64,000 nt of DNA from an uncultured virus (IMG/VR IMGVR_UViG_3300038423_000106) (lineage: Duplodnaviria > Heunggongvirae > Uroviricota > Caudoviricetes), in IMG/VR virus record IMGVR_UViG_3300038423_000106; one strand, given 5' to 3'. The notes under the pieces are model-generated. The model did no database searches and was not told where the DNA came from. It was given only the letters and a program-made list of their open reading frames with translations. This document shows, piece by piece, positions 3,129 to 59,586 of the stretch (positions are counted from its first letter, which is position 1; every line of letters begins with the position of its first letter). The position numbers were made by a program, and so were the translations under genes.

Positions 3129-3541
3129 GAGCAGGACAACTGGAGCGATTTCAGCACGAGGTCGTCGACTCCCGGGCCGTTCTCCTGCAGCGCGGCATCC
3201 GCGATCCGTCCGTTCACCAGCAGGTCGCACGGGGCGTTCGTCGGGGCGTCGTAGTACCTGCAAACTTGCAGGGCGTAGCGCTGAATTTTCTCGCACGCCT
3301 CCTCGCTGATGGTGGACGGAGCGATGGACCATGTGTACTCGACTGATCCGTCGGCGATCTCCTGCTGCTCCTCTGGGGAAGGAGTCTGGTTTCTGTCCGG
3401 GGCGGAAGTCTGTCCCTTGTCCCTGCGCGAGAACTCGATGGCTGCGCCCTTCAGCCAGCCGTAGACTCGTCCGGCGACGAAGGGAGTCATCTGCTCGATG
3501 TGGTACTTCTTTCCGTTCACAGTCACATCTTTGCTTTGCAT
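3074..3541 (-). CDS. Tail assembly chaperone (gpG-like)
   Basis: Between tube and tape measure; KDVTVNGKKYHIEQM start; SD GAGGA. Confidence 0.75.
   Translation of the reverse strand: MQSKDVTVNGKKYHIEQMTPFVAGRVYGWLKGAAIEFSRRDKGQTSAPDRNQTPSPEEQQEIADGSVEYTWSIAPSTISEEACEKIQRYALQVCRYYDAPTNAPCDLLVNGRIADAALQENGPGVDDLVLKSLQLSCSPFFLRELLKMFPATPTA
3119..3128 (-). promoter_or_regulatory. Programmed -1 ribosomal frameshift site C CCT TTT TTC
   Basis: XXXYYYZ heptamers (CCCTTTT, TTTTTTC) in frame near the 3' end of the chaperone; -1 frame open to 2871. Confidence 0.75.
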
Positions 3542-3554
3542 GAAGTCCTCAGTG

Positions 3555-4010
3555 TTACGTGTTCGTCACGTCAGCCGCCATGAACTCCCATGTGGTGTGC
3601 TCGCCCTGCGCGGCATATGGCGTGTCGGGCTGCTTTGTCGGGCTGAGTCCCGTGAGCACGTGCCCGGTGTTCGTGGTCACCGAGCGGATGGAGAGCGTGG
3701 CCGAGGCCCAGTTTGTCACGTCGTTGTTCCTCTGCGCCGCGATCAGCTGGTTCATGAACTCGGTGAAGAACTGGTGGATGACCGAGGTCTGCTGCGTCTC
3801 GATGGTGACGTGCCCGTTGTCGCCCTTGATGCTTGACACCATGATGGCCCCGTCCGCCGCCACGTCGTGCACCGTGCGGACCGTGGTCATGGCGACGACG
3901 ATGCGCGTCGTTCCGATTGGGCCGGAGAACGACATCGCGGGAACTAATGGAGACGCGAACGCGATCACGACATCCCCGAAACTGTACACGCCGCCGGTTG
4001 GTTGCGCCAT
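3555..4010 (-). CDS. Tail tube protein (DUF3277-like)
   Basis: YSFGDV...VAADG.IMVS....NG.VTI..QQTS...P...Y...G....WEF; follows sheath. Confidence 0.8.
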   Translation of the reverse strand: MAQPTGGVYSFGDVVIAFASPLVPAMSFSGPIGTTRIVVAMTTVRTVHDVAADGAIMVSSIKGDNGHVTIETQQTSVIHQFFTEFMNQLIAAQRNNDVTNWASATLSIRSVTTNTGHVLTGLSPTKQPDTPYAAQGEHTTWEFMAADVTNT

Positions 4011-4028
4011 AATATGTTTCTCCTGTTC

Positions 4029-7945: not shown

Positions 7946-8767
7946 TTATTGCACGCTATCGGTTAGCGAAGTAAACCGTCCAAACTCATCTTGTGGAACT
8001 CGAATAATAGGATGGCGACCTTCAGCGTATGCCCGCTTCAAAGACTCTGAGCGCTTCTGTTTAGTCTCCTCAGATTGTTTCTTGCCTTTGTGAGATAGCG
8101 AGAGATTAGCCCGCCATTCTGCCGAATGAGTCTTGCCTTTATTCCAAGCAGTTTGACCTTTTTTCCATCTAGTCTCTTTCCCGGCTTCTGCGAGAATTGC
8201 TCCAGTATTATTGCGAATAGACGCTATCCTGATCTTTTGACGCGTTGAGGGAGAAAGAGGGGCGCGCTTACGCCCGCGCTGCCATGCTCCTATTTTTTCT
8301 CGAGTCTCGGCAGAAATAACTCTTGTAAAGAGATACTGCCGCAACTTCTCTTTAGTCTTTTCAGACATAGGAAGATGCTTGGAAGAGGCCCGCATCCTCG
8401 CCTTTGTCTCTTCCGATGCTTTCTTCCCGAGGTGCGAGCGCCGGTTTTTCTCGATTACCTCAGGCGCGGGATCACATACTCCATCACCGCCAGCAGTGAG
8501 GTTGTACCCATGAGGAGCCTTAGAATTTAATAGTGCGATGTAGTATTTTTCTTTCTGGTTCAACTCTTCAAATGAAGAAGCGTGGTCAATAATAGAGAAC
8601 TCGAACGAGCGCGTTCCATATTTTTTTATCGCTCCATGAATTGCTGTCAATCTCTTTCTAGACGTTGGAGCATTCAGGTGCTGCTGACGGCGTTTTGCAA
8701 GTGTATGCTTAGTAATCCCAACATATAACTTGCCGTTAACCATGTTCCTGATACGGTAGACAATCAC
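7946..8767 (-). CDS. GIY-YIG homing endonuclease with NUMOD3 repeats
   Basis: VYRIRN..NGKLYVGIT...E..YI......P.GYNLT.GG; repeated SEETK.K motifs; lower GC than neighbours. Confidence 0.9.
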   Translation of the reverse strand: MIVYRIRNMVNGKLYVGITKHTLAKRRQQHLNAPTSRKRLTAIHGAIKKYGTRSFEFSIIDHASSFEELNQKEKYYIALLNSKAPHGYNLTAGGDGVCDPAPEVIEKNRRSHLGKKASEETKARMRASSKHLPMSEKTKEKLRQYLFTRVISAETREKIGAWQRGRKRAPLSPSTRQKIRIASIRNNTGAILAEAGKETRWKKGQTAWNKGKTHSAEWRANLSLSHKGKKQSEETKQKRSESLKRAYAEGRHPIIRVPQDEFGRFTSLTDSVQ

Positions 8768-9351
8768 TTTGCTCTCTCGCCTAACAACCAAATTATACTT
8801 TGTCGCAAGGCACCTGTGTCTATGTTTCTCCGGCTCGAACCCTTGCGGCGAATTGTAGCGGCGGCGTTCGGCGGCCAGTTGTTGCGCGGGTCTGTGAAAA
8901 AATTGCGTACGACGTTCTGCCCAGCCATGCCCGCTCGCTTCATGTATGTAACCGCCTGCGCCCTTTTCCCGTCCAACTGCAAACTTGCAGCCTCGCGCAG
9001 TTCGGGGATGATCTTGTCTTGATCTAACTCGATCGCCGGTTCGATGATCGGCGTCGGCGGCGTGTGGTACGCCATGCTGCCGCGCGACTTGATGTACAAC
9101 TCCTGTGCCGCATTGTATGACACGTTGCGGTTCAGCATCATCGCGCCCATGATTCGGCGGGCGTCTATCGTTCTCACGCCCTTGGTTAACAGAAACGCCA
9201 ATTCTGCATTCGTGATGTCCCCGCCTTTCCGAGACGGGCTCGCTTCTGGAATCCCGACATAAACAGCTAAGTCCTCGATCCCGCGTATGTTCTTCGCGGC
9301 CTTCACCGATCCATCTAAAACAGTCTTCACTTGGATGTTAGGCTTGAACAC
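8764..9351 (-). CDS. Neck/virion morphogenesis protein (HK97 gp10-like)
   Basis: VYVGIP...TNAELA...W.PNA..TI.RKGSSR..IDTG.LR.SI. Confidence 0.75.
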   Translation of the reverse strand: MFKPNIQVKTVLDGSVKAAKNIRGIEDLAVYVGIPEASPSRKGGDITNAELAFLLTKGVRTIDARRIMGAMMLNRNVSYNAAQELYIKSRGSMAYHTPPTPIIEPAIELDQDKIIPELREAASLQLDGKRAQAVTYMKRAGMAGQNVVRNFFTDPRNNWPPNAAATIRRKGSSRRNIDTGALRQSIIWLLGERAK

Positions 9352-11797: not shown

Positions 11798-11816
11798 GGT
11801 GGTTTATTGGTCTCCT

Positions 11817-19084: not shown

Positions 19085-19088
19085 GGCG

Positions 19089-21560: not shown

Positions 21561-21826
21561 AAAACAAAACTGTAAATTTGCCGTTAGATCACGCATATTT
21601 TTGTCCGGCTTGCGAATGTCTTTCGCGAAATAAAGTATGCACTGATGGTCATAAACCTTGGCAGACTATCAACATGCGCAAATTCCTCATGCGCTTGGCT
21701 GGCCGTCTCATTGCTCTGACCGATGGCTACTCTGTAACCGATGTCAATCTCATTACGAACGTTCACGATGGCAGACCATTAAAAATTAACCAACAGCGAG
21801 GATTCTGTGTAACCGTTAAGCTGTAG
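21557..21826 (+). CDS. Hypothetical Zn-ribbon protein
   Basis: ATGA-coupled start; AYFCPACE...C. Confidence 0.5.
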   Translation: MKNKTVNLPLDHAYFCPACECLSRNKVCTDGHKPWQTINMRKFLMRLAGRLIALTDGYSVTDVNLITNVHDGRPLKINQQRGFCVTVKL

Positions 21827-24994: not shown

Positions 24995-25783
24995 CTACTG
25001 GACGCTGACGACGAACGTGCTCGCCGGACCCGCGACGACGTTCACCGGGCTGTAGGTTCCGGTCAAAGTGCCCATCACCGGGCCTGTGGCCGTCACCGTG
25101 ATCGTGTCGCCCGAGACGAGCGCGGGCGGGGTGGCCGGAGCCACGACGCAGCTCATGCCGTCGGCAGCGACCGTGAGTACGATGTTCGGATCCGCGCCCG
25201 CCCCCGGCGTGGTCTCGCATATCCAGGTCGGTACGGTGCCCGCGTCGAACGAGGTCGGCAAGCCGGCCGCGTCCACGATGCCCGTGATGGTTCCCGTCGC
25301 CGTGCCGTTGTCCGGGATCGATACCTTGAACTTCAGTTTGAAAGTCTTCGATTTTGCCATGTCTGAATCTCCTTTTCGGTTGAGTGAGTTTACGTCGACC
25401 ACTTCAACCTGAAATGCCACGGCTGGAGCGGAGGGAGGAGGTGTCTTGAGAATCGCCAGTATCTCCGCGATGTTCGAGGAGTCTGCGTTCTCTTGGGTAA
25501 GCACGGACTGCAAATTTGCAGCCACGGCCGTGTCTGTCTGGACGAGCGTGGAAAGGGCCGAGGCCATCCCGGCGTCGGCGTTGGCCAGGGCCGTGAGTTC
25601 GACGTTGCCAGCATCCACGGAGGTTTCGAGCAGGCGCAGGCGGTGCTCGATTTCGACTTGGTTGCTGTTGATGACTTCGCAGTAGTGGAGGATTCGAGTC
25701 AGAACGTTCTGGACCCAGACGGGTTCGGTGGGTTTGAAGACTGGCTCGGGCGGGGTTGGAGGTCCTGGTACGGGTTCGCTCAT
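24995..25783 (-). CDS. Hypothetical protein (coiled-coil plus Ig-like beta domain; internal start at 25360)
   Basis: SD AAAGGAG at both 25783 and 25360. Confidence 0.6.
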   Translation of the reverse strand: MSEPVPGPPTPPEPVFKPTEPVWVQNVLTRILHYCEVINSNQVEIEHRLRLLETSVDAGNVELTALANADAGMASALSTLVQTDTAVAANLQSVLTQENADSSNIAEILAILKTPPPSAPAVAFQVEVVDVNSLNRKGDSDMAKSKTFKLKFKVSIPDNGTATGTITGIVDAAGLPTSFDAGTVPTWICETTPGAGADPNIVLTVAADGMSCVVAPATPPALVSGDTITVTATGPVMGTLTGTYSPVNVVAGPASTFVVSVQ

Positions 25784-26793: not shown

Positions 26794-27147
26794 TCACGCT
26801 GGCTCCGCCTGCAAATTTGCAGCCCAGACCTGACGCCGGATCGCGGCTCCGTTCGACTGACGATATGCCTCGGGATAACTTAAATCGAGGTTCTCCGGCC
26901 TGCGCGGTGGCAAAAGCTTGGGAACGGGGCGCGGCCCTGCGCGGAACTGCTCTTTCACCTCTGCCCAGGCGAAGCGGCCGAGGAGCACTATGCCCAGCTT
27001 CGGCTGCGACGGCTTGACGTACTTGGCCCAGCTGACGTTGACCAACAACGCGGCGAATTTCGGGGACGTTCTGTGCGGCGGGAGATCGGGAAGAGAGTCG
27101 GAAGGCTTGGAAGGCAGGAGGTAAACGGGGAGCCGATTGTTGGCCAT
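26794..27147 (-). CDS. Hypothetical protein
   Basis: First ORF after the promoter at 27239-27267. Confidence 0.55.
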   Translation of the reverse strand: MANNRLPVYLLPSKPSDSLPDLPPHRTSPKFAALLVNVSWAKYVKPSQPKLGIVLLGRFAWAEVKEQFRAGPRPVPKLLPPRRPENLDLSYPEAYRQSNGAAIRRQVWAANLQAEPA

Positions 27148-27238
27148 CAGTCTAGGGCAAGTAGGGTACGGGGATTCAAGTTGCGTTGAACCACCAGCTT
27201 CTATCGAGGCCGGAAACGCATGTTGAAGATTCGATTGA

Positions 27239-27267
27239 ATAATAATCACAAATTGCCCCGCTGTAAA
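27239..27267 (-). promoter_or_regulatory. Sigma70-type promoter
   Basis: TTTACA-17 nt-TATTAT in an AT-rich intergenic gap. Confidence 0.6.
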
Positions 27268-28342: not shown

Positions 28343-28702
28343 CTAAATTCGCTTTGATCCAGCCCGACCATTGCACAACCAGCAGGAACATGAATTTATT
28401 TTATGCCCGTCTGAGTCAATGATGCGGTCATCCCTTGTTGCGCTGCCCATCCCGCGCCCGTTCGTCGAATGGTCGAACGTCGGAGCCACGATGCGGTGAT
28501 CTCCTCGACTGCAAATCCCATTCTGGCGGTCGTGCATCTCCATCGTCCGACGCTTGTATTCTGCTTCGCCTTTTGCATTGTCCAAACAGACCTCGCGCCC
28601 ATCGGGATATTTGCGGAACGAATCATTCACGACCTCGAAGCGCAGCGATGTGGCGAGCCCCTTGTACTTCTTGCGCACACGGCCCATGAACGGAGTTGTC
28701 AT
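28343..28702 (-). CDS. Degenerate HNH-like protein
   Basis: RQ.G.C...TFDH...RGMG....D...C..CN..GS. Confidence 0.5.
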   Translation of the reverse strand: MTTPFMGRVRKKYKGLATSLRFEVVNDSFRKYPDGREVCLDNAKGEAEYKRRTMEMHDRQNGICSRGDHRIVAPTFDHSTNGRGMGSATRDDRIIDSDGHKINSCSCWLCNGRAGSKRI

Positions 28703-35594: not shown

Positions 35595-36353
35595 CTATGG
35601 AAATTCGTGAATCTGCAAGTTTGCAGGTATCAGCGCTTTTCCAGCTGCGGGAGTGAGTGCCGAGAACTGCTTGACGAACAGCTTGGTCCCGACAGCCTTG
35701 CACTCTGCCCGAAGATTAATCAGCCACTCCAGTTTCATCGGTCGGCGAGCGTGCCCACTTTCTCCTCCGAAGATGATCCAGTCCGGAGGCACGTTGTAGT
35801 AAAAGCCAGACAACGGACTCTGCACTATCGAGACCGGACCGAGCGCCGGTTCGTAGCTGATCCAGTTCACTCCGCCGCGCTGAATCGAGACTTCGCAGAT
35901 GATCGGGTAGCGGATGTCGTAGAACTCTTGATTTTCAGCCGTCGCTCCGTACCACACGTTGTTGTGCTTGAAGTCTTTCGGCAAGTAACGCTCGTAACGC
36001 TGCGGCCGCTTCGTGAGCAGTTGCCAGATGAGGTTCGGGGTCTGGTCGATCAACGTCCACAGTCGCTCCCTCTGGCCTTCGGGAGCCTCGTCGTCCATTA
36101 TGTCGCACATCGAACCGCAGAACACTTTACGCTTGACGCTTTCCTTGGCGGCTTTCTTATCCCAGCGCAAAGGATCGTTCCAGTAATGATCGCTCATAAT
36201 CCGGCGTGACTCGCCTTTGCCCCAGTGTGCTCCGCCGACGCGCTTATCAAAGGCTTCAGCATAGCAGTGATCGCAACCTGGAGACACTTTCGTGCAACCC
36301 CACCACGGATTGAACGTCGCGTCTGTCCAAGAAATGCCAGTTGTCTCTGCCAC
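35595..36353 (-). CDS. DUF5131 / phage Gp37-Gp68 family protein
   Basis: I.WTD.T.NPW.GC.KVSPGC..CYA; LLTKRP; S.EP.LG; DW.I.GGESG..RP; F.KQ. Confidence 0.9.
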   Translation of the reverse strand: MAETTGISWTDATFNPWWGCTKVSPGCDHCYAEAFDKRVGGAHWGKGESRRIMSDHYWNDPLRWDKKAAKESVKRKVFCGSMCDIMDDEAPEGQRERLWTLIDQTPNLIWQLLTKRPQRYERYLPKDFKHNNVWYGATAENQEFYDIRYPIICEVSIQRGGVNWISYEPALGPVSIVQSPLSGFYYNVPPDWIIFGGESGHARRPMKLEWLINLRAECKAVGTKLFVKQFSALTPAAGKALIPANLQIHEFP

Positions 36354-36598
36354 TACGAATCCCCCTTCAACTCTGATTCCCCGTGAGAGATGAACTCTCG
36401 CAGAATCTTCGCCCCGCATTCCCAACTGCAAACCTCTTGCGGCTCATCGGCAGCTTGATACGGCAGAGCACTGGACGGTGGAACCATTGCGATAAAACGC
36501 GGCACATCCTGCTCGCGTCCGATTCCAATGCGCGCGAATATCTGACTCTGTTTCAACTCTTGTCCGCAACCGTCACAGGTGATGATTTCGATTCTCAT
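36353..36598 (-). CDS. Small Zn-binding protein
   Basis: CDGC...CS.EC. Confidence 0.55.
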   Translation of the reverse strand: MRIEIITCDGCGQELKQSQIFARIGIGREQDVPRFIAMVPPSSALPYQAADEPQEVCSWECGAKILREFISHGESELKGDS

Positions 36599-38430: not shown

Positions 38431-38816
38431 TTGATGTTCGCTTCCTTAAACCCGACTGCGATCTCTGGCGGTAACGGAATCTGTTGCTCTGTCGGTCGCC
38501 AGAGATGCAGGCAATATGGATGATTATTGATCCACTTAGACTTTGGAGGATGCAACTGCATGACCGTGTCTTCGTCGTCCCAGAACAGCGATTTCACGAA
38601 GCACATTTCATCCCAGTTCGGACAACGATTCGAGAGCGACACCGAAACATGCTCCCACGGAATCTGCTCGTTAGCATCACCCGGGCTTGCGATGATCCTA
38701 AGCATTCGGAAGTGTGGACCTTCGATTTCAAACGAACCGTAATCCGCTCCAATCGGAGAACCATATAGGCCGTTGCGTATTCGATGCCGCTCTAATTTGC
38801 CTGAGAACTTCATCAC
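38427..38816 (-). CDS. Conserved phage protein (WEHVSVS family)
   Basis: WEHVSVS...RCP.W.EMC.VK..FW......Q.HP......N.H..CLHLW. Confidence 0.75.
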   Translation of the reverse strand: MMKFSGKLERHRIRNGLYGSPIGADYGSFEIEGPHFRMLRIIASPGDANEQIPWEHVSVSLSNRCPNWDEMCFVKSLFWDDEDTVMQLHPPKSKWINNHPYCLHLWRPTEQQIPLPPEIAVGFKEANIK

Positions 38817-40138
38817 GCCCCCTCTCCGAACAGACTCTCTCCGTCCAGCGGGTCAGCTTCGACCACGCCTTGCTCCGCCGGAGAGTCATCGACGAATACC
38901 TGACCTCCGAGTTCCAAAAGATGCTCGACATGAACGAACAGTTTCCCGTTCTTTTCGTGCTCCGAGACTTCGGCTCTCATCGCCAATGCAGGCTTTATCT
39001 CGCCGCGCTGTTCGAAATACTTGTGCAGCGATTTGTGCCAGATGCAAAGATAACCCTTTCCTTCGTTCGTGAGCACTTCGAGTTGAAGCATCGTCTTTTT
39101 GTTGATTGTTTTTTTTTCCACTCCAATTAGAGAGTAGGCGCGGTGGTTCGTCGGCTTCGAGGTCAGCCTGTCCTGCTCCGCCTTCGCTGCATATTTGCAG
39201 TCCGGCTCGTGGCCGTTCACGCCGCCGCAGTTCCCGCACTTGACGTCCATGTTCGGCTGCTTCTTCGGCTCGACGATCTCTTCGGTCTCGTCCGGCTTCG
39301 GGAAGGTCACCGGGGCGATGTTCGCGGCAGGGTAGAACTCCGGCGCGATCTCCTCGGCCCGTTCGTTGTCGTCCTCGACCACCTCTATCCTCCCAGTGCC
39401 GAGCATCTTCCGCGTCTGCTCGAACAGCCTCGCATGGTCCGTCATCCGCCCGATCAGCTCGCTGATGCCCGCTGCCTGAATCTCCAAGTTCAAGGCATAG
39501 ATCGTCGTCGAGTGGCGCTTGTTGTCTTTTTCGGACATGTAACTCGTCTTCTCCGGCCTGACGACTAGCTTGGCCCTGATGCCCGCCAGCCTCCCCCCGG
39601 TGATCGTCTGAATCTGCTGGATGCTGGAAGAGATTTGCATGATGCTCCGGTACGACCCGGTGTGAATGCGCGCCACCGATCCGAGCTTCGGGAACGCGGC
39701 CAGCATGAAGCGCAAGTCGCCCGACGGCTTGCAATCTCCGCGCTCGAAGTCCGGACAGGATTTTCCGCACGGAGTCCACGGTTGCCCGTCCGGGTGCTCC
39801 GGCGTCCTTCGCGTGGCCGACTGCCCATCCCCGAAACACTTGCACTCGGATGCGGTGAACCACGCCAACTTCGTCGGGAAGACGTTTTCCAAGTCGTCAT
39901 CCAATAGGACGATTTCGAATTCCTTGCACTTGTTTCCGTATGCCTTCGTAAGGTCCGGATCGATCTCCCAGGCGTTCTTGCTGGAAGGAGACTTGCGCAG
40001 GAACACAAAGCAATCGAGTTTTACAGGAGCCTTGCGACCGTGCTCTGGGTCAGGCGGCAGACCGATCGCCACCTTAGTGCTCACGGCCAACCGTTGGATG
40101 GGACTGCCGTCTTCCGTTGTCGTTATTCCGCGAATCAT
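38813..40138 (-). CDS. Recombination directionality factor-like (Gp3-like) protein
   Basis: KV.IG......P.KLD.F...C.GDG..A...C...CK..G.L.F.L...G......T.S..S; next to exonuclease. Confidence 0.65.
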   Translation of the reverse strand: MIRGITTTEDGSPIQRLAVSTKVAIGLPPDPEHGRKAPVKLDCFVFLRKSPSSKNAWEIDPDLTKAYGNKCKEFEIVLLDDDLENVFPTKLAWFTASECKCFGDGQSATRRTPEHPDGQPWTPCGKSCPDFERGDCKPSGDLRFMLAAFPKLGSVARIHTGSYRSIMQISSSIQQIQTITGGRLAGIRAKLVVRPEKTSYMSEKDNKRHSTTIYALNLEIQAAGISELIGRMTDHARLFEQTRKMLGTGRIEVVEDDNERAEEIAPEFYPAANIAPVTFPKPDETEEIVEPKKQPNMDVKCGNCGGVNGHEPDCKYAAKAEQDRLTSKPTNHRAYSLIGVEKKTINKKTMLQLEVLTNEGKGYLCIWHKSLHKYFEQRGEIKPALAMRAEVSEHEKNGKLFVHVEHLLELGGQVFVDDSPAEQGVVEADPLDGESLFGEGA

Positions 40139-40148
40139 GGTATTCTCC

Positions 40149-41114
40149 TTAGAAAATTCTGTCGATGATCTCTACTAAATACGCCGCGTCCACCTTCTCG
40201 GGGTCTTTTTCTTTCAGCCGCTCGATCAATTGGACGAAGTAAGCGGTGTCGACGCCGGTCAACTGATCTTCAAGCACGTTCAAGTCTTTCAGATTCAGTT
40301 CGCTGATCTGCATCGCCATCTTGAGAATCTGTCCTGCGTTGACTCTCCATCCGCGCTCGATGAACTTCCGCAAGCGGACGACAGAGCAGATCGGGTACTT
40401 GCTGCCGACGTAGCGCAGTTCCCTCGCCAAGAGAGATTCGAGGGCTGCTGGTCGGAGCACGAGTTCGCTGTCCCAACTTTTCCAATAATTAGTGCAGTGG
40501 ACGAAGTCGTAGTTCGCGTGTATCTCGTCCGGTTCTCCGTAGAATCTGAGGATGAGCTGGATTTTACCGCTCAGCGTGATCGCGTTCGAAGTCATGAATA
40601 CAGGCCGGTGCTTCGGCTTGTCCTTCTCGTCTTCCGTTGCCAGCGCCTTGGCTTCGATCTCTTGGTGAGTATCTTCAATCTGCGCGGGGTCTTGGATGAC
40701 TTCTCCGACGTAGGCTGCCGCATTCTCGTCCGGTGCTCCCTCGAAATATTGGTACGGCTTCTCGGTTCCTTCTGCACTCGCGATGCCTGCAGATTTGCAG
40801 ACAACCTTGATGCGAGTCCCGTCGTCAAGGATGCTCAGCGGAACGTCGATCCCGTTCTTCTTCCCGGGCTTAAACCGCGCTAAGCAGTAGTTCGCCACTG
40901 CGAGCGTCGTGTCATGATCTCGGAAGTACAGATCGAAGTCATTCACTTCTTCCCCGAGCAGCATAGAAGCAATCGAACCGCCGGTGACGATCACGCCTTT
41001 CGACAACTTCTCTTTTAGTGCGGCGTCTTCAATGGTTTCCAGCCAGCCATCGACCTTGCGGCGGATTATGCTTTTGATCGTCTTCGTCTTCATGCCGTGC
41101 TTGTGCTCTGTCAT
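40149..41114 (-). CDS. Nucleotidyltransferase-superfamily protein
   Basis: GG.I.S.L..E.VND.D.YF; N.IT....Q......YDF.H; R.RKF..RGW. Confidence 0.7.
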   Translation of the reverse strand: MTEHKHGMKTKTIKSIIRRKVDGWLETIEDAALKEKLSKGVIVTGGSIASMLLGEEVNDFDLYFRDHDTTLAVANYCLARFKPGKKNGIDVPLSILDDGTRIKVVCKSAGIASAEGTEKPYQYFEGAPDENAAAYVGEVIQDPAQIEDTHQEIEAKALATEDEKDKPKHRPVFMTSNAITLSGKIQLILRFYGEPDEIHANYDFVHCTNYWKSWDSELVLRPAALESLLARELRYVGSKYPICSVVRLRKFIERGWRVNAGQILKMAMQISELNLKDLNVLEDQLTGVDTAYFVQLIERLKEKDPEKVDAAYLVEIIDRIF

Positions 41115-44031: not shown

Positions 44032-44394
44032 CTATTTCTCCATCCCGAAGAACGGCGCCGGGTGAACGTCGATCACCGTGTACGTGAACGTGTTCGAGTC
44101 CTCCAAGGTACAGGTGTCCTCTACCACAAATCCGTTCTCGTCCTGGTAGGCGACGTAGAGTTCCCCGCCGTAGTAGTCCTGAAGGTAGTCCGTCCGCGTG
44201 AACGAGACCGTGTAGTTCGCGTCCCACTTGCACTCCAGCGGGAGAACGATCGTCGCGCTGGCCTGCGGCAAGCCCTCCTGGGAGAGCGTCAGCGTCCCCG
44301 TGGCCACGGTCAGCCCGGCGAAGTTCCAGCACTTCGGTTGCGCCAGCGCGGTGCCGGCGAGCAACAAGATTGCGAGCATCAGTTTGGTCTTCAT
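44032..44394 (-). CDS. Secreted hypothetical protein
   Basis: Signal peptide MKTKLMLAILLLAGTALA-Q; SD AAGGAG. Confidence 0.65.
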   Translation of the reverse strand: MKTKLMLAILLLAGTALAQPKCWNFAGLTVATGTLTLSQEGLPQASATIVLPLECKWDANYTVSFTRTDYLQDYYGGELYVAYQDENGFVVEDTCTLEDSNTFTYTVIDVHPAPFFGMEK

Positions 44395-45130
44395 TGTGGT
44401 TCTCCTTTTTTACCTGCAAAATTTGCAGTCAGAACTTCTCGAACATCACGACCCAGACCGCGCGCCAGACGGCCGCGCAGACCAGAGCGGCCACGACCAA
44501 GCGGAAGATCGCGAACCAGTCCTTCCTCGTGAGCGGCTGCCAACAAGCGAGCGCCCAGCGGCGGCGACGAGTTTGAAAATCAGTTTCCGTCATAAAAATC
44601 TTCCTCCAGGCAGACTCCTTCTGTACTGCTTTAGGGGTTTTGCTCCCTTGCTACTGTTCTCGTCTGTTCTTACGTCTTGAGAAAGTAGGTACGGGTTGAA
44701 CAAGCAGTTAGTGTGGAGGGTAGTAGGAGAATCGCCAGAATTCACCCTTTCGGCACTGGCCCATTGGCCTCCGTCCCCCAGCCTTGCTCTCTCTGCCTCC
44801 GACCTTCCGAGGCTTACGTCTTGCAGCGGCCCGTTAATTTTCGGATGTACGCAGTGCCGCGAAGCTACCGCCCGATCGCTCGGGAAACAGACGTGGGTCT
44901 CCCGGTCAATTGGATCAGGCTCGAATTGTGAGAGTGAGGCATTTGATCGGGTGAAAGTTCGTACTCTCTGGTGGCCGGTCCACCCGATCAAGAATTTCCC
45001 GGCCAGCGCAGAGAGCAGAACCGACCTAAGATTATCACATCCTAAGCCGATGTCTAGAACTTTTTTCATTTTACTGTCCTCCTGCAAGTTTGCAGGACAG
45101 GCCGCCCAGCCCGAGACGGCCCGTCCCCTC

Positions 45131-46057
45131 TCAGCGGTCAGCAGCAACGGGCGAAGTAGAGGCGACCGCTGAAACCTTCTTGCCGAAACGATCACATTCG
45201 TAGAGAACCTTCCCCACCCTGAATCCGATCTTGTAGGGATACTCTGGGTTGTCTTTCCACTCATACAAGTCGGCCTTATTGATCTCGACAGCGATATAGC
45301 GGTCGCCTTTAACCGTGCGGAACTCATCGCAGAAATACGGAAGCGAGCAAGCATGGAATTTACCACCGCCACATTCACTGTTCTTTGGTTCCCATGCTTT
45401 ATGCTCGACCGTAGAACCCACCAGCCATAGTGTTTCATTCTCGGTATTTTCCTGCGTCTTCCAGTCAACGGAAACTCGCTTGTAAAGTACGACTTTGTCA
45501 CTTTCTTCGACTGCGTTGCGTTCAAACCATCCTAAATCCTTGATGATCTGCACGTGGCAGTGTTTGGACTGTTTGCCTATATTCAGATTGATCGTGACTG
45601 GAAGGAAGGCTACAGAGAAGCCATGCAGCAGAATCTTTACGAATGCAGAGAAGATGCGCACAACAGAGTTCCCCCACGCCACGACCGAAGAGTTCTCCCA
45701 CGCCACGACCGAAGAGTTCCCCCACGCCACGACCGAAGAGTTCCCCCACGCCACGACCGAAGAGTTCTCCCACGCCACGACCGAAGAGTTCCCCCGCGCC
45801 ACGACCGAAGAGTTCTCCCGCGCCACGACCGAAGAGTTCCCCCACGCCACGACCGAAGAGTTCTCCCACGCCACGACCGAAGAGTTCCCCCGCGCCACGA
45901 CCGAAGAGTTCCCCCACGCCACGACCGAAGAGTTCCCCCGCGCCACGACCGAAAGCCATTTACCAGCTGTATCCTTAATTATGATACGCGTGTATTCATC
46001 GAACTTCTTTGGCAGTGCGTCCAGTTCAGATTGAGTAGTAACTACGATTTCTTTCAC
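45131..46057 (-). CDS. Octapeptide-repeat (beta-solenoid) protein
   Basis: GTG start after GGAGG; (NSSVVA[W/R][G/E])n; C-terminal LYK.V...C..G.FH.C...K domain. Confidence 0.75.
   Translation of the reverse strand: MKEIVVTTQSELDALPKKFDEYTRIIIKDTAGKWLSVVARGNSSVVAWGNSSVVARGNSSVVAWENSSVVAWGNSSVVARENSSVVARGNSSVVAWENSSVVAWGNSSVVAWGNSSVVAWENSSVVAWGNSVVRIFSAFVKILLHGFSVAFLPVTINLNIGKQSKHCHVQIIKDLGWFERNAVEESDKVVLYKRVSVDWKTQENTENETLWLVGSTVEHKAWEPKNSECGGGKFHACSLPYFCDEFRTVKGDRYIAVEINKADLYEWKDNPEYPYKIGFRVGKVLYECDRFGKKVSAVASTSPVAADR
45666..45953. repeat. 24-bp tandem repeat x12
   Basis: GAGTTC[C/T]CC[A/G]CGCCACGACCGAA units; variation at two positions only. Confidence 0.95.
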
Positions 46058-46116
46058 GAGTACACCTCCCTTGATTTTGATTGGTTTGCATATCGCCTCA
46101 TTGCTGTACTGGAAAC

Positions 46117-46186
46117 AATCTAGCAAATCGCGTGCTAGCATGTCAAGCAAATAATGCTTGACATGCATCTCTATCAATGATAAAAG
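46117..46186. promoter_or_regulatory. Back-to-back promoters on a 12-bp inverted repeat (early switch)
   Basis: GCATGTCAAGCA-N5-TGCTTGACATGC (46138-46166) supplies TTGACA on both strands; TGn-TAAAAG to the right, TGn-TAGATT to the left; gene orientation diverges here. Confidence 0.75.
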
Positions 46187-46192
46187 GAAAAC

Positions 46193-46339
46193 ATGGACGA
46201 GCAAACCAAAACTTTATACGTCAGAGACGTTCCAGTGCTTTTGATGAATAAAGCGAAAGCAGCTGCGGCCACTGAGGGGCTTTCGTTCCCAAAGTGGATC
46301 ATTAAACTGATTGAAAAGACGGTGGGGATTAAGAAATGA
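46193..46339 (+). CDS. Ribbon-helix-helix regulator (48 aa)
   Basis: MDEQTKTLYVRDVP..LM.KAK..AA.EG.S...WI..LI; SD AAGGA. Confidence 0.7.
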   Translation: MDEQTKTLYVRDVPVLLMNKAKAAAATEGLSFPKWIIKLIEKTVGIKK

Positions 46340-47281: not shown

Positions 47282-47626
47282 ATGCCGAAGAAAGCCGCAA
47301 AAAAGCCCACTCAGAAAGTAAACAAGATCGCCCGCCAAGACGCCTTGCCCGGTATGGACGTTGGAATCAAAGAGATCGAAGACGCGGCTCTGGATTATCG
47401 GGAAGGCCGCGACGAGCGCATGGCTGCCACGGAAGTAGAAGTGACGCGCAAGCAAGCCCTGATCGCGGTCATGCACAAGCACGGCAAACAGTCGTACTTG
47501 CGCAGGATCGGAGACAAGGTTCTGAAAGTGGAATTGAAAGTCGAGAAGGAATCGGTGAAGGTCGCGCTCAAAGATCAAGCGCCTGCCGCCGGGGAAGGCA
47601 GTGAAACACGAAGCGATCAAAGATGA
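47282..47626 (+). CDS. Hypothetical protein
   Basis: SD AGGAG. Confidence 0.65.
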   Translation: MPKKAAKKPTQKVNKIARQDALPGMDVGIKEIEDAALDYREGRDERMAATEVEVTRKQALIAVMHKHGKQSYLRRIGDKVLKVELKVEKESVKVALKDQAPAAGEGSETRSDQR

Positions 47627-47675
47627 TTCGTTACCCTTTTGAAGTGACTGCAAACTTGCAGAGGAGAACACAGAA

Positions 47676-48026
47676 ATGAAGAAGTTGATACCGCTCGCGC
47701 TGCTCTTGACCATGATCGCCGCAGCCCAGCAGAAGCCGTCCGAGCAACCGAAAGCCGAGGAGTCCAAACCCGTCCCCGAAGCCGTCAAGTTCAAAGTTCT
47801 GGCCGCGTGGCACAAGGCGAGGCAGTACCAGGACGAGGCCGCGTACATCAAGGACCAAGTGTGCCAATCGGTCGTTCAGTGCAAGCAGGCGCAGGACAAG
47901 GCGCAGGCGGCGGTCAACGACTACAACGCGGGACTGCCCGTCTGGACGAAGGAGGCGGGCTTGCCGGAAGGCTCGCAGATCGTCGTGGACGAGCGCACGG
48001 ACGCGGTGACGGCCGCGAAGAAGTAG
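47676..48026 (+). CDS. Secreted helical protein
   Basis: Signal peptide MKKLIPLALLLTMIAAA-Q; SD GAGGAG. Confidence 0.65.
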   Translation: MKKLIPLALLLTMIAAAQQKPSEQPKAEESKPVPEAVKFKVLAAWHKARQYQDEAAYIKDQVCQSVVQCKQAQDKAQAAVNDYNAGLPVWTKEAGLPEGSQIVVDERTDAVTAAKK

Positions 48027-48571: not shown

Positions 48572-49381
48572 ATGAGCCGCATACTTGGTAGCGTTTCCGG
48601 CGGTCGCACATCTGCAAAGATGGCGTGGCATATGAAGCGGGAGTGGAGCGCAACGCACGAACTCATCTTTGCGTTCGCCAATACCGGGAAGGAGCGCGAA
48701 GAAACGCTCCGCTTTGTAGATCGCTGCGACCGTGAATGGCGGCTTGGCATCGTCTGGGTTGAGGCTGTAACACATCCCGAAGTGGGTGTGGCTTGTACCC
48801 ATCGGGTAGTCGATTACGCTACGGCTAGTCGCAGAGGAGAACCGTTTGAAGCTGTGATTCAAAAGTACGGAATCCCTAACATGAACTACCTGCACTGTAC
48901 CCGCGAACTCAAGGCCAATGCTATCCGAAGTTACTTGCAGAGTATCGGCTGGACGGATTACCTCATTGCTCAGGGGATGCGGATTGACGAGCCGAAGCGC
49001 ATCAAGCCGAAAGACGGGATTATCTACCCGTTGGCCTATACGTGGCCTACCACGAAGCCGGAAGTGCTGGACTGGTGGAAAGATCAATTTTTCGATCTCG
49101 GATTGCTGGAGCACCAAGGAAACTGCGATTGCTGCCACAAGAAGAACATCACCAAACTAGTCAGGATCGCGCAAGAGAACGAGCGCACATTCGATTGGTG
49201 GAGCGAAATGGAAATGTCCTATCCGCTTAACGGGCATAACGTAGACGGCACTCCGCGCACTTTCTATCGTGGACATCGCTCTGCAAAAGACATCGTAGCA
49301 ATGTCGAAACTGATGACTTTGCCGCCTTTGCCAGACCAAGAGGCCGACGGAGGTTGTTCGGAAAGTTGCGAGGCATTCTGA
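48572..49381 (+). CDS. PP-loop / PAPS-reductase-like protein
   Basis: SVSGGRTS, FANTGKE..ETL.F, CT..LK, G.R.DE, YPL, GNC..C..K, CSESCE. Confidence 0.8.
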   Translation: MSRILGSVSGGRTSAKMAWHMKREWSATHELIFAFANTGKEREETLRFVDRCDREWRLGIVWVEAVTHPEVGVACTHRVVDYATASRRGEPFEAVIQKYGIPNMNYLHCTRELKANAIRSYLQSIGWTDYLIAQGMRIDEPKRIKPKDGIIYPLAYTWPTTKPEVLDWWKDQFFDLGLLEHQGNCDCCHKKNITKLVRIAQENERTFDWWSEMEMSYPLNGHNVDGTPRTFYRGHRSAKDIVAMSKLMTLPPLPDQEADGGCSESCEAF

Positions 49382-50683: not shown

Positions 50684-50910
50684 CGCATTCTCATCGCTTC
50701 GGAATTGCAACGCATCAATGTATGGATTGCGGACAGCTTGAAAAGTTCGAGTGTCCAACGCGCGACGGCCTGCGGGATGCCCTGCAAGCCTGTGAGCGAT
50801 ATCTTGGCAATCTAGTCGATGAGGACACGCCAAGTTGTGCGCTATTGCTTGGAAGAGTCAGGAGCGCCCTCGCTGCGCTGCCCGGAAAGGAAACGAATGG
50901 GAACTCGTAA
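50680..50910 (+). CDS. Hypothetical cassette gene
   Basis: Shares RDGLRDALQA and ALAALPGKE modules. Confidence 0.55.
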   Translation: MTHSHRFGIATHQCMDCGQLEKFECPTRDGLRDALQACERYLGNLVDEDTPSCALLLGRVRSALAALPGKETNGNS

Positions 50911-51301
50911 GATTCTGACCGTCAAGGGGTGCGAAAAGCGCTTGGCTCGCGGTCGTGAAACACGCGCAAGATTCGTGGCCTCTCACATCGACAAGGGAAT
51001 CGCTTTCCAACTCCGTTCTATTCGTGACGCCCGAGGATTAAGTCAAGTCGAAGCGGCGCGACTGGCGGGGATGGAACAGGCTAACGTGTCGAGAATGGAA
51101 AACCCGTATTACGGCAAGCATACATTGACTGCTTTGAAGCGATTGGCGGCAGTCTATGATATTGGTCTGAGCGTGGAATTCGTACCATTCTCGAAACTGA
51201 TTCGTCGCGTCACTGGAATAACAACAAGTTGGACTAGAGCCGAAATTAAACGATCATTCCCTAGCGCCCTCGCTGCGCTGCCCGGGAAGGAGAAGAAATG
51301 A
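50897..51301 (+). CDS. XRE-family HTH protein
   Basis: IAFQLR..R..RGLSQ...A..AGM.Q..VSR.EN..YG......L.RLA...D..L.V.FVPFS. Confidence 0.8.
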   Translation: MGTRKILTVKGCEKRLARGRETRARFVASHIDKGIAFQLRSIRDARGLSQVEAARLAGMEQANVSRMENPYYGKHTLTALKRLAAVYDIGLSVEFVPFSKLIRRVTGITTSWTRAEIKRSFPSALAALPGKEKK

Positions 51302-53866: not shown

Positions 53867-54526
53867 CTATGGTACGGTTACCGCCAGGGTCGCGCTCATG
53901 GCGCTGACTTTAGTTCCAAGCGCCGACTTGACGCCATAGTACCGGGTCTGCCCCTTGACCGGCTTCGTGTCGACATAGGACGCCGCTGTGAGCCCGCTCG
54001 CCAGCTGTTTCGGGTCGGGCAGTTTCGGTTCCACTCCCCGGAACACATCGTAGCTGATTCCCTGCAAATTTACAGGCGTCCACTTCAACGGCACGCGGTT
54101 CTCCGTGACAGTCTCGACCGTCAGGCCGGTGGGCGCCGGGGGCTGCGCGTCGGCTGGGATCGTGGCGCTCACCTCGTTTGACGGCCCTGAAAGGCTCGGG
54201 CTGGCGGTCGACAGATAGGCTTTGGCGACATACCAGTAGGTCTGCAGAGCCGTCACCGCCGTATCGGTGTAGGAGCAGGTCGCGAGCGGCGAAGCATTCA
54301 GTGCCGTCGCGCTCTCCCCGCCGGAGGCCGTTCCCTTGTAGAAATTAAACTGCACGCCCGCCGCCGTATCCGTGCATCCCCCGAGGGTAACGGAGTGCGC
54401 CGTCGCAGTGGCGGTGAGCGGGCGCGGCTCGATGGAGGGCGGGGCAGGAGTGTTGGCGCGCTGGGCAGTCGGAGTCATACAGCCGACCAGGGCGAGCGAG
54501 AGAACTGCGGTGATGATGATTTTCAT
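53867..54526 (-). CDS. Lipoprotein with two FN3-like domains
   Basis: Lipobox LVG-C; F/Y..Y/FRG...Y.D......Y.Y.V.A FN3 patterns. Confidence 0.75.
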   Translation of the reverse strand: MKIIITAVLSLALVGCMTPTAQRANTPAPPSIEPRPLTATATAHSVTLGGCTDTAAGVQFNFYKGTASGGESATALNASPLATCSYTDTAVTALQTYWYVAKAYLSTASPSLSGPSNEVSATIPADAQPPAPTGLTVETVTENRVPLKWTPVNLQGISYDVFRGVEPKLPDPKQLASGLTAASYVDTKPVKGQTRYYGVKSALGTKVSAMSATLAVTVP

Positions 54527-57026: not shown

Positions 57027-57028
57027 AC

Positions 57029-58696
57029 TTAATGCACCGTCACGGTCAAGCCAGTCGGGGCGTTCGGCCCCGTAGCCGCAAACTGGTACGCGCCCACGTT
57101 CCACGCGCCAGTGGAAGGACGATTAACTCCGAGAATGGCTGGAACGACTACAGTGTGATTGGTGGCGTTGTACGCCACGCCAGTGAACCCCTGAAGGCAG
57201 GCCGCCTTGGATACGGAATCGTTCAGTCCGTTGCAGAATGTCGCATTGTTCGTCCCGGCCCCGACCGTGGAATTACTGGATGCCGTGGGCGCGTAGTCGT
57301 TCGCTGACGTGTAGCCCTGCGTAGCGGCAAGAGTGGGCGTCATAAACAGATCAGTAGTTTCGCTACTGAATGAGCATCCGTCCATCGTGGAAGTGTAGGT
57401 CGTGATCCAGTGATTGTTCTGGGAGCTAACCGATCCGGGAGCCGGAGCGGGGCAGGGCCATGCTGAATTGAACGGAGGATTCACGAAAGTGTTGTTATAA
57501 AAAGCCACATTCCCGCCGCCGATGGGAGGCGATGCTTGGCTGATGTTGAAGTAGTTCGAGTTCGCGTACAGGTCATGGATGACGTTGTTGAAGACGTAGT
57601 CTGTCTGTCCGGTAGGCGGGGCGAGCCACAGCGTGTTCGCGGAAAGCGCCTGGCTCCCGAGCGTCCCGATGTAACGGAAGATGTTGTTGTAGAAAAGATT
57701 CGGATCTGACGAGCCGTGGGACGTTTCCCCGTAGCACTGGAGCACGTCCGAGTGCGACGAGCCATCCGTCACGTTGTTCATATACTCCCAGAGATTGTCG
57801 TGAACCCGATAGCAGCCAGAAGATGAATTTTCTCCTTGGTTGTAGCGAACGACGTTGTAATTGAACTGATAAACGTCGCCTTTCATCGAAATCAGCGAGT
57901 ACGGGTCGGAATCCGAACCGTCGATGACGTTGTATTCATAGGTGATTCCGGGCTCCTGATTATAGCTGTAAAATGCGATCCCGCCGCCACCTTGCGTGCC
58001 AGCCGAAGTATGGGTCCATCCGTGAACGTAGTTTCTCGAAACAATGTGCCCGTTCGGGCTGCCGCTGGAGTTGAAGGTGAGCATGATCGCGCCACCTTCG
58101 TTCGATGATTGCGTGGTGTTCCAGCAGAACCCAGTGAACTCGAAATCGTCAAGGATGTTATAAACCGTGCCGCTGAAGGCAACCATGTCGTTGCCGTTCG
58201 TGACTTGGTAGGCGCAACTGCCGACCACGCTCGTGCTCGGCGAGTTGTCGCCCGTGAAAACGGGCCGCGTCCATCCCGTGCTCGGCCATCCGAGATCGAC
58301 GCCGATGTACGTGTAATGACTGCTCGTGCCGCTCCAAGTGAAGTTGATGCCGCCACCGCCTGCGTATGGAGTCGCGGACGAGTTGCCGAAGTGGTAAGTC
58401 GATCCGCCCTCGATGATGATCCCGGTTCCAGCGGGAACGCCTGCTGATTGCACCGTGCCGCAAGTGGCCGTGCAGGTTGGCATCCCCGGAATGTGCAGCC
58501 ACGGGCTTGATTCACTAGTGCCGGAATTGCTGTCCGACGCCCCGGAGAGCGACGAAGCGTAATAGCAAGAGGTCACGCCAAGCGAGGCAAGGGTGACCAA
58601 CGCGCCCGAAGCATTCGGATAGTTCGTTCCATTGGGACAGGAGCCGCCAGCGGCAAAACAGGCCGCGCTCAGAAACAGGATAAGTACGCATCTCAT
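57029..58696 (-). CDS. Secreted right-handed beta-helix (pectin-lyase-like) protein
   Basis: Signal peptide; D.NSGT...PW...P, H.D..Q, YNN/FNN ladders, W..GAYQ; C-terminal APTGLTVTVH. Confidence 0.75.
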   Translation of the reverse strand: MRCVLILFLSAACFAAGGSCPNGTNYPNASGALVTLASLGVTSCYYASSLSGASDSNSGTSESSPWLHIPGMPTCTATCGTVQSAGVPAGTGIIIEGGSTYHFGNSSATPYAGGGGINFTWSGTSSHYTYIGVDLGWPSTGWTRPVFTGDNSPSTSVVGSCAYQVTNGNDMVAFSGTVYNILDDFEFTGFCWNTTQSSNEGGAIMLTFNSSGSPNGHIVSRNYVHGWTHTSAGTQGGGGIAFYSYNQEPGITYEYNVIDGSDSDPYSLISMKGDVYQFNYNVVRYNQGENSSSGCYRVHDNLWEYMNNVTDGSSHSDVLQCYGETSHGSSDPNLFYNNIFRYIGTLGSQALSANTLWLAPPTGQTDYVFNNVIHDLYANSNYFNISQASPPIGGGNVAFYNNTFVNPPFNSAWPCPAPAPGSVSSQNNHWITTYTSTMDGCSFSSETTDLFMTPTLAATQGYTSANDYAPTASSNSTVGAGTNNATFCNGLNDSVSKAACLQGFTGVAYNATNHTVVVPAILGVNRPSTGAWNVGAYQFAATGPNAPTGLTVTVH

Positions 58697-59586
58697 TGGA
58701 TCACCACGCAGATCACGTTCGACGGCGGACCTTCTTTTCCCGCAGAGTCCACTGCCGTTACGTAGTAGTCGTAGTTGTAGAACAGGGCTACTACCTGATC
58801 CGTATAGGTCACAGTCGGAGCCGTGACCGATCCGATCTTCGTCATGCTGACCGGCGTGCTGCTTCCTGTGCAACTTCCGGTCGAAGGATAGCCACGATAG
58901 ATATTGTAACTAGCGGCAGGATCACTTCCCGTAGGGGCGGTCCACGCGGGGAGCGTGTAGTGCGGAGCGAGCACGTAGCTGTATCTGTTGTTGAACCACT
59001 GGCCACCGATCAGAGAATAGAGCGTGACATACATAGTCGAACCGTTGGCCGGGAACCCGGTCGCCTGAGTGCTCGTGAGAACGTTCCCCAGATTGCCGGA
59101 CTGGATGTAATTGTTCCCGCCCACGGTGGTCCCTATGTCGATCCAGTAGGCAGTTGCGCTCGTTCCTGCCGCCCATGTGAACGTTATGTGGTTTGTGTCC
59201 AGAGTCGAGTTGTTCGTCGGAGTCTGCATGACGGCGGCCCCGGCCGTTCCGTTCAGCGACGAATACGTGTAGACGCCGTGCTGCCATACGCCGCTCACCA
59301 GAGAGTACAGGGTGGCATAGACTGTTGTGCCGTTCAATGGGAGGCTCTGCACGGTGATAGTCAGAACGTTTCCCAGATTGCCGGATTGGTAGTAATTGTT
59401 CCCGCCAGCCGTCGTCCCGAGGTCGAGCCAGTAGGCCGTCGCCCCGCAGGAGGAGCAAGTCCAGTCGAACGTCACCGTGCTCCCGCTGAGTTGGGTTCCG
59501 GGTGTCGGCGTGGTGAGCGTGGCTTGCGGGAACGCCGCCGCGCAAGCGAGCCAGAGGAAGACTGCAAGTTTGCAGGTAATTTTCAT
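58693..59586 (-). CDS. Secreted protein, two tandem beta-sandwich repeats plus FN3-like domain
   Basis: Signal peptide; AYW.D.GT..GGNNY.QSGNLGNVLT twice; YNIYR...YYVTAV. Confidence 0.75.
   Translation of the reverse strand: MKITCKLAVFLWLACAAAFPQATLTTPTPGTQLSGSTVTFDWTCSSCGATAYWLDLGTTAGGNNYYQSGNLGNVLTITVQSLPLNGTTVYATLYSLVSGVWQHGVYTYSSLNGTAGAAVMQTPTNNSTLDTNHITFTWAAGTSATAYWIDIGTTVGGNNYIQSGNLGNVLTSTQATGFPANGSTMYVTLYSLIGGQWFNNRYSYVLAPHYTLPAWTAPTGSDPAASYNIYRGYPSTGSCTGSSTPVSMTKIGSVTAPTVTYTDQVVALFYNYDYYVTAVDSAGKEGPPSNVICVVIQ

Follow-up and report, generated by a model that had tools for sequence, protein, structure and literature searches.

Occurrence of the palindrome in the phage genome

A 64,000-nucleotide stretch of DNA from an uncultured virus of the Caudoviricetes (IMG/VR IMGVR_UViG_3300038423_000106), referred to in its full length as the window, was analyzed for a dispersed 14-bp palindrome, CTGCAARYTTGCAG. 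Comparison with PHROGs and Pfam indicated that the window is from a myovirus-like phage that encodes a tail sheath, tube, tape measure, major head protein, portal, and terminase, as well as a DnaB-like helicase, a replication initiator, and recombination genes. Leftward genes fill the stretch between about 46.2 kb and position 1 and continue from 64 kb to 51.65 kb, and a short rightward arm occupies 46.3-51.6 kb. One viral contig (G226, L369:1550-11256) matched both window ends at 100% identity and joined them by 9,707 further bases, so the genome is about 73.7 kb, circular or permuted, and the window represents about 87% of it. This contig is the same phage and was not counted as an independent case. 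The 9.7 kb outside the window held one more exact copy and one more copy with one mismatch, both with the flank GGTGAACT, and there are nine exact copies in the whole genome of about 73.7 kb.

All eight exact positions in the original prediction were recovered, and there were no others in the window. The four copies with one mismatch were likewise found where they had been placed, and the copy described as carrying an extra base proved to have a three-base centre. The copies, and one doubtful site, are as follows.

3258..3271, exact (CTGCAAACTTGCAG), in the overlap of open reading frames (ORFs) 3074..3541 and 2871..3332, a likely tail chaperone pair
8977..8990, exact, in the tail-completion gene 8764..9351, encoding AASLQ
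25508..25521, exact with an AT centre, inside ORF 24995..25783, encoding AANLQ
26809..26822, exact with an AT centre, in the last nine codons of ORF 26794..27249 and 31 nt ahead of the next start at 26778
29320..29333, one mismatch (CTGCAAATTTGCGG), near the 5' end of ORF 28699..29403
35613..35626, exact, at the 3' end of the DUF5131 gene 35595..36431
39187..39200, one mismatch, in the Gp3-like gene 38813..40138, encoding the conserved peptide DCK(Y/F)A
40787..40800, one mismatch (CTGCAGATTTGCAG), inside ORF 40149..41114
44414..44428, three-base centre (CTGCAAAATTTGCAG), intergenic, 20 nt ahead of the start of 44032..44394, by a GGAGAA run
45082..45095, exact, intergenic, touching a GAGGA run and the ATG at 45072
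47648..47661, exact, intergenic, 22 nt past the stop of 47282..47626 and 15 nt ahead of 47676..48026, abutting AGGAGA
54062..54075, one mismatch (CTGCAAATTTACAG), inside ORF 53867..54526
59562..59575, exact, in codons 4-9 of ORF 58693..59586, 8 nt beyond the stop of the upstream gene
21570..21583, two mismatches (CTGTAAATTTGCCG), membership uncertain given the chance level at two mismatches

Enrichment and anatomy

None of 100 dinucleotide-preserving shuffles of the window contained an exact match (0.00 expected). With up to one mismatch there were 12 copies against 0.03 expected, the additions being those at 29320, 39187, 40787, and 54062, and with up to two mismatches there were 13 against 0.71, the sole addition being that at 21570. 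A codon-aware null, the check that the original prediction had proposed, was built from 1000 synonymous-codon shuffles inside 87 gene calls with the intergenic DNA unchanged. It yielded a mean of 2.10 exact copies (maximum 4), two of which are the unshuffled intergenic ones. In other words, six exact copies were observed in genes where about 0.1 was expected, and with up to one mismatch the null gave a mean of 2.77 (maximum 6) against the 12 observed. The two kinds of shuffle together rule out chance, composition, or a codon artefact. In an unbiased scan of the window for all 6-base inverted arms with spacers of 0-8, this motif was the only family with more than two copies.

The 12 outer bases are invariant in all eight exact copies, giving an anatomy of six fixed, two free, and six fixed bases, with AC, AT, or GT at the centre. 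When CTGCAA facing TTGCAG was sought with spacers of 0-14, only spacer 2 (eight copies) and spacer 3 (one copy, at 44414) were found. In four high-GC contigs every CAAATTTG 8-mer lay inside the motif (3/3, 7/7, 7/7, and 4/4). Around the eight exact window copies, flank pairing was no better than chance, with a mean of 2.0 of 8 positions, which indicates that the functional unit here is the bare 14-mer and not a longer hairpin; nor do the flanks have anything in common beyond the 14 bases. The copies are palindromic, occur on genes of both strands, and have no orientation.

Gene contexts of the copies

Ten of 13 copies were located in ORF calls, which cover 92% of the window, and three lay entirely between genes. 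Six of the intragenic copies are read from codon position 2 (A/P-A/V-N/S-L-Q), three from position 3 (C-K-x-A), and one from position 1 (L-Q-V-C). The peptide of the position-2 frame does recur, as ANLQ is encoded by five intragenic copies, but selection on the peptide is ruled out by the use of three reading frames and by the three intergenic copies. The palindrome is enriched and is kept by selection on the DNA itself, as had been proposed and as both the frames and the codon null show. In the tail-completion gene, the five residues encoded by the copy at 8977 align without gaps to homologs lacking the motif in three related viral contigs, and therefore this copy arose by substitution and not by insertion. 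ORFs 2871-3541, which hold the copy at 3258, form an overlapping pair between the tail tube and tape measure genes, the usual site of frameshifted tail chaperones.

The three intergenic copies (44414, 45082, and 47648) were each found 10-20 nt ahead of a start codon and alongside AGGAG-like runs, which bears out the earlier observation that they adjoin ribosome-binding sites. Three others (26809, 35613, and 59562) are within 35 nt of a gene boundary, and that at 35613 is upstream of a 154-bp gap preceding the replication-initiator gene 34625..35440. Ten of 13 copies fall within 25.5-48 kb, where the early, recombination, and replication genes are, a segment that was picked after seeing the data.

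Neither sigma-70 promoter-like nor terminator-like sites at 34-52 kb coincided with copies, and neither class was more frequent than in shuffles. Specifically, none of the 15 terminator-like sites in this segment was at a copy, and the stems in the window are 5 bp. Rfam 15 had no match in the window at E values up to 1, and no tRNA or tmRNA was found. RNA and DNA contigs of three sequencing runs showed nothing on the copies over 34-53.9 kb, though contigs cannot show transcript ends, and an uncovered bin at 44.6-45.3 kb in these contigs was not taken as a finding.

Occurrence in other viruses

A megablast search of the phage collection revealed no near relative of the window, the best portal matches being at most 38% identical. 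None of five viral records with related portals (38-58% identity) contained a copy, which rules out inheritance from phage relatives. An exact scan of the viral collection for CTGCAAATTTGCAG returned at least 124 stretches, and eight contigs had at least two copies among the 80 matches listed. In a complete viral scan, a control palindrome matched in composition, GACGTTTAAACGTC, gave 72 stretches from 72 different contigs, never twice in one. At least four further lineages of viral contigs, with few or no proteins in common with the window, carried the motif 4-9 times each. Counts per record were made with CTGCAANNTTGCAG over whole records, and the built-in control pattern was found in none of them. 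The motif-rich contigs were as follows.

G008, 25 kb, 5 copies
G009, 34.6 kb, 7 copies
G011, 59.9 kb, 9 copies
G225, 16 kb, 4 copies, with a 96-base stretch around one copy in common with G011
G223 (L368), 16.7 kb, 44% G+C, 6 exact and 5 one-mismatch copies of CTGCAANNTTGCAG

The proteins in common with the window were limited to the replication module in G008, DUF5131 and DUF7694 in G009, and one PD-(D/E)XK protein in G011; there were none in G223. The latter is a low-GC phage fragment of mostly structural genes, with AT, TT/AA, and TC/GA as free centres, and its low G+C shows that the motif is not limited to high-GC phages. Two positions were conserved between the window and G008. The window copy at 45082 and the G008 copy at 11807, each exact, lie ahead of homologous DNA, and an exact G008 copy occupies the place homologous to window position 39187, inside the homologous gene at the DCK(Y/F)A codons. 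Six of the seven G009 copies and about half of those in G011 were intergenic. The centre was the palindrome AAATTT in all seven G009 copies and in seven of the nine G011 copies, and the G009 copies cap longer palindromes, like the bacterial ones described below.

Three contigs were not counted as cases: G222, and G007 and G010, which have about 41-43% GC and two copies each, those of G007 lying in a duplicated stretch of about 70 bp. In G222 (L367:3040-3090), a low-GC provirus, both copies lie in one gene at a distance of 33 bp and encode a repeated SANLQ peptide.

The idea of a system private to this phage was not supported, as the same 14-mer is enriched in unrelated viral contigs and in bacterial chromosomes outside prophages.

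Occurrence in bacterial chromosomes

A search of the genome collection with the 18-mer GACTGCAAATTTGCAGTC gave 48 matches, many of which were A-tract/hairpin/T-tract terminators of Bacteroidota and Firmicutes. The motif with 12 fixed bases occurred 23 times, in 21 of 150 Flavobacteriales genomes, about as expected by chance, and a CG-containing control was rarer, being found in 4 genomes. The many terminator matches to the 18-mer were therefore treated as background, and a general bacterial terminator hairpin was ruled out by the chance-level rate. Two high-GC matches were in Acidobacteriota, both in a single family (seven genomes). Four of the seven genomes contained 5, 5, 5, and 13 copies and three contained none; the control pattern was absent from six and present once in the seventh. 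An even sample of 200 other Acidobacteriota genomes included three with a single copy each, ruling out a phylum-wide feature.

Twenty-four of the 28 bacterial copies were outside rough ORF calls, many of them 18-50 nt past a stop codon and some between convergent genes. Their neighbors were housekeeping and toxin-antitoxin genes, not phage genes, with five of the 28 adjoining the toxin-antitoxin genes. The centre was AAATTT in 26 of the 28. In the four motif-bearing genomes (G012, G013, G220, and G221; L254-L281) some copies of the 14-mer belonged to a longer intergenic repeat of about 75 nt, with an A-rich box ahead of the hairpin and CAGCAGAATCAACGRCTT about 15 nt after it. One bacterial locus contained several tandem variants that kept only GCAAATTTGC. 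G012 (L374:3106-3175) also had two further GCAAATTTGC-based palindromes with other outer bases, 50 bp apart, just past a nuoB-like gene and 1.3 kb from a relative of an XRE-type protein of the window. Rfam had no match at the copies in 10 bacterial loci.

Y1_Tnp transposases (IS200/IS605-type) were encoded in four of the seven family genomes, three motif-positive ones and the motif-negative G219, and were absent from the motif-positive G220. None of nine Y1 transposase loci contained the motif core, and a repetitive extragenic palindrome (REP) system of the kind linked to RAYT proteins was ruled out by this lack of a Y1 link.

The candidate host family had about 0.7-2.3 copies per Mb, whereas the density of exact copies in the phage was about 120 per Mb. 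The original prediction had held that equal abundance in the host would reassign the motif as a host repeat, and abundance in this family is far from equal. DNA of the window was matched in sequencing runs that are labeled as peat or wetland metagenome, with 20 matches from 19 studies, and the source may be among them. Together with a match of the XRE-type protein described below, this habitat label is only suggestive of a link between the phage and the Acidobacteriota family.

Candidate binding proteins

Among the window proteins (88 compared with PHROGs and 84 with Pfam) there was no integrase, partition protein, or regulator shared with the other contigs. Two proteins with a helix-turn-helix (HTH) appearance were noted.

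50819..51301, plus strand, XRE-type HTH protein of 160 aa, the sole Pfam-backed HTH; a candidate binder only, not named in the original prediction
33061..33327, minus strand, basic protein of 88 aa, HTH-like by eye, with no family match; a candidate binder only

The second was one of three binders put forward from the sequence, and it retains its HTH look by eye, though a family match could not be added. The other two are weak candidates: the ORF at about 21300 looks spurious, with a PD-(D/E)XK/Hjc-like protein encoded on the opposite strand, and position 46193 is the start of a tandem-repeat gene with no DNA-binding match. The proposal of parS-like sites fared no better, as no ParB domain was detected in 84 window proteins (E up to 0.001), and the only ParB-like signal was a weak PHROG match in G009 (E 2.8e-4).

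Relatives of the XRE-type protein were found in the motif-bearing Acidobacteriota family, the best at 51% identity (E 1e-25) in a motif-positive genome. They were present in three of the four motif-positive genomes and in none of the three motif-negative ones, the other two matches being weaker. Outside the family, six of 150 other Acidobacteriota genomes had relatives, at 34-39% identity.

Interpretation and alternatives

The reading to which we give most weight, at a probability of roughly 40%, is that the copies are double-stranded DNA sites of 6+2+6 anatomy for a dimeric protein whose specificity extends beyond this phage and which acts on gene expression. A symmetric dimer fits because the 12 outer bases are invariant, the centre is variable and can be extended, the flanks are unpaired, and the sites have no orientation. 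The original prediction of sites for a dimeric protein is suited by the 6+2+6 symmetry, and it was weak in the binders that it named. We infer the binding of a protein, its dimeric state, its encoder, and the effect of binding, as follows. Each monomer would read one CTGCAA half-site, with the two central bases a barely contacted spacer. The binder may be a protein of the host lineage or a regulator moving between phages. Sites would be kept by selection wherever they fit, genes included, and be densest in the early and replication part, several of them sitting between a stop codon and the next ribosome-binding site. The bound protein might then tune long one-directional operons, as an orientation-free roadblock or attenuator or by looping.

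Several observations weigh against these being dimer sites. Sites placed right before ribosome-binding sites leave no room for a promoter and would suit an RNA-level element equally. The bare motif alone can fold as a predicted RNA hairpin with a 5-bp stem and a 4-base loop, at about -5.7 kcal/mol. The bacterial 14-mer, and that of G009, caps longer palindromes with co-varying arms. All eight flank pairs had changed on both sides, with 55 cells against 18.9 after shuffling (a value reached by none of 500 shuffles) and at most 20 when the arms were slid by 1-3 columns. This set comprised 26 distinct bacterial copies, among which kinship inflates the counts, but the slid controls keep that relatedness. 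The covariation in the alignment points to a hairpin or cruciform, which a plain dimer site does not explain. No protein family was common to the four annotated motif-rich contigs by BLAST, phmmer, Pfam, or PHROGs; absence of a shared gene is weak evidence, because the motif-rich contigs are fragments that are 20-82% complete by the tool's own estimate, with the four annotated ones at 42-82%. The two HTH candidates of the window had no detectable homolog in the other motif-rich contigs, and neither candidate gene has a copy of the motif nearby. Portal and terminase queries revealed no close prophage relative in the seven family genomes: the window portal and the G011 terminase were found in none of the seven, and the G009 terminase had distant matches only, at no more than 37% identity.

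The main rival, which we regard as less likely, is a nucleic-acid hairpin, in RNA or single-stranded DNA, whose tip is read by a factor or is self-acting and which ends, processes, stabilizes, or translationally tunes polycistronic transcripts; the bacterial copies would be the full-length form and those of the window a minimal one. It would account for the co-varying arms, for the intergenic placement of most bacterial copies past stop codons, for the intergenic share in G009 and G011, and for the three window copies next to ribosome-binding sites. The predicted RNA stability is -18 to -23 kcal/mol for the bacterial copies and -14 for G009, and the changed base at 54062 keeps a G-U pair on the sense strand. 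In the window, however, the unpaired flanks leave a stem of only 5 bp, most copies are in genes, and at 29320 the mismatch disrupts a sense-strand stem pair. Conservation extends to positions 6 and 9, though these could not pair across a 2-base loop, and the AAATTT centre, itself palindromic in nearly all bacterial, G009, and G011 copies, would have no need to be so in a loop. No U-tract terminator was predicted at any copy in 34-52 kb, and no Rfam family matched. A hairpin is the better explanation for the bacterial and G009 copies and for the positions before ribosome-binding sites, and the worse one for intragenic bare 14-mers, a palindromic centre, and conserved bases that cannot pair.

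It is quite improbable that a private phage repressor silences the genome through many stoperator-like operators, with the occurrences elsewhere explained by joint transfer of the sites and the repressor gene. Cluster A mycobacteriophages do have repressor sites scattered over their genomes, as passages of PMC9283540 describe, and the window does encode an XRE-type HTH protein whose relatives follow the motif in the Acidobacteriota family. That split of three of four against none of three is not significant, however, and may reflect only kinship. The window lacks an integrase, partition protein, or shared regulator, though 9.7 kb of the genome lies outside it. Moreover, the sites are symmetric, while stoperators are asymmetric and oriented with transcription, according to the passages available from PMC4351075; the bacterial copies are next to housekeeping and toxin-antitoxin genes and not in prophages; and none of the five portal-related phage records has a copy.

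A selfish or recombination-linked repeat, either a tiny mobile element or a crossover or module-boundary site in phage-host chromosome exchange, is very doubtful: it would suit the presence in unrelated phages and in a bacterial repeat family with longer shared flanks of about 75 nt, and the many copies at gene boundaries, but there is no insertion at 8977 relative to the homologs, 10 copies sit in contexts that preserve the reading frame even though 14 is not a multiple of three, PHROGs and Pfam showed no recombinase or transposase in the window, the Y1 transposase loci of the family lack the core, and the window flanks share nothing beyond the 14 bases.

Comparison with known systems

In anatomy, the closest known kind is that of the Cluster O mycobacteriophages, as described in passages of PMC4351075, with which nearly all anatomical traits are shared. 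These phages contain 17-bp dyad-symmetric repeats, TGTTCGGNNNCCGAACA, in which the 7-bp arms are invariant and the 3 bp at the centre vary. Roughly one in three of the repeats lies inside a gene. The phages are not temperate, and the authors, who call the repeats 'of unknown function', predict that a dimeric protein binds the DNA (PMC4351075). The two sets are alike in having inverted invariant arms, a variable centre, and many copies throughout a genome of about 70 kb that are denser in the non-structural arm. Both also mix intergenic, 5'-proximal, and intragenic positions, have no orientation with respect to transcription, and belong to phages that are not evidently temperate. They differ in size (6+2+6 here and 7+3+7 there), in number (nine exact copies in about 73.7 kb here and 34 there), and in the word itself. 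In addition, the word described here is also found in unrelated phages and in bacterial hairpin repeats, neither of which figures in the passages available from PMC4351075.

The Cluster A stoperators are similar in being many copies of one short site, also within genes, that are thought to affect transcription elongation (passages of PMC9283540 and PMC4351075). They are unlike the present sites in being asymmetric, oriented with transcription, and bound by the monomeric immunity repressor of a temperate phage (PMC4351075). The original suggestion of stoperator-like repressor sites suits a palindromic site poorly, given the asymmetry of stoperators in passages of PMC4351075. Here there is a palindrome that is not private to the phage, and no repressor family or integrase was found among the window proteins, although one XRE-type HTH protein is present.

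REPs and bacterial interspersed mosaic elements are intergenic palindromic repeats of bacteria. The bacterial copies alone resemble them, being a dispersed family of intergenic elements, mostly just past genes, with compensatory hairpin arms. Differences are the 5-13 copies per genome, the conservation of the tip and not the base, and the lack of a link to RAYT-like Y1 proteins, and the window copies are bare 14-mers that are mostly intragenic. One regulator with many dispersed phage sites is familiar from the C1 operators of P1, the conserved inverted repeats of phiC31, and SPBRE of SPbeta, each with its own phage-encoded repressor in a temperate phage. They differ in this from the present case, in which no repressor family or integrase was found among the window proteins. 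To our knowledge, none of the LacI-, CRP/FNR-, sigma-54-, LexA-, IscR-, or NsrR-type sites fits the spacing.

A search of open-access text for the exact words returned only three unrelated papers. Dispersed dyad repeats in phages are a known kind of element; a single word common to unrelated phages, a narrow bacterial lineage, and co-varying hairpin tips was not found described in open-access text.

Other features of the phage genome

Between the copies at 45082 and 44414, the stretch 44420-45080 (minus strand) has an un-protein-like translation and shares blocks of high DNA identity with G008 (L152:11830-12365), where the proteins of the surrounding module are only about 30-40% identical. It may be a conserved structured RNA, and no Rfam, tRNA, or tmRNA match was found for it. 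Gene 45131..46204 (minus strand) contains at 45670-45960 a 24-bp unit repeated 12 times head to tail, which encodes repeats of eight residues, GNSSVVAW or GNSSVVAR; in one run the DNA assembly is fragmented into small contigs there.

Two GIY-YIG and two HNH homing-type endonuclease genes (7946-8791, 13995-14750, 31839-32372, and 46336-46788) are scattered among the structural and early genes. A short-chain dehydrogenase, a radical-SAM protein, and a family-2 glycosyltransferase are encoded at 16802-20219, between the portal and a Mu-F-like head gene; possible capsid-modification genes in a similar position are noted for Cluster O in passages of PMC4351075. There is also a PAPS-reductase-like gene at 48572..49381 and a truncated-looking C5-methylase match at 27276..27980.

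Conclusions

Dispersed dyad repeats have been known in lytic phages for a decade, and here one word links unrelated phages, a narrow bacterial lineage, and hairpin repeats. The 14-mer offers several handles: it can serve as bait in a pull-down, the four motif-positive and three motif-negative genomes provide a contrast within one family, and the independent phage lineages can be searched for gene co-occurrence. Should the binder prove to be a host protein, a further use of the motif would be as a sequence clue to the hosts of uncultured peat phages. A broader and rather speculative possibility, which we consider unlikely, is that hairpin repeats specific to one lineage of peat Acidobacteria are recognized by their tip, which is the 14-mer, and that several unrelated phages, each on its own, have accumulated this tip without the arms to a density 50-170 times that of the chromosome. 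The phages would thereby recruit, titrate, or escape a single host factor that binds it. If true, this would be an 'address' shared by host and phage, of a kind not found described in open-access text.

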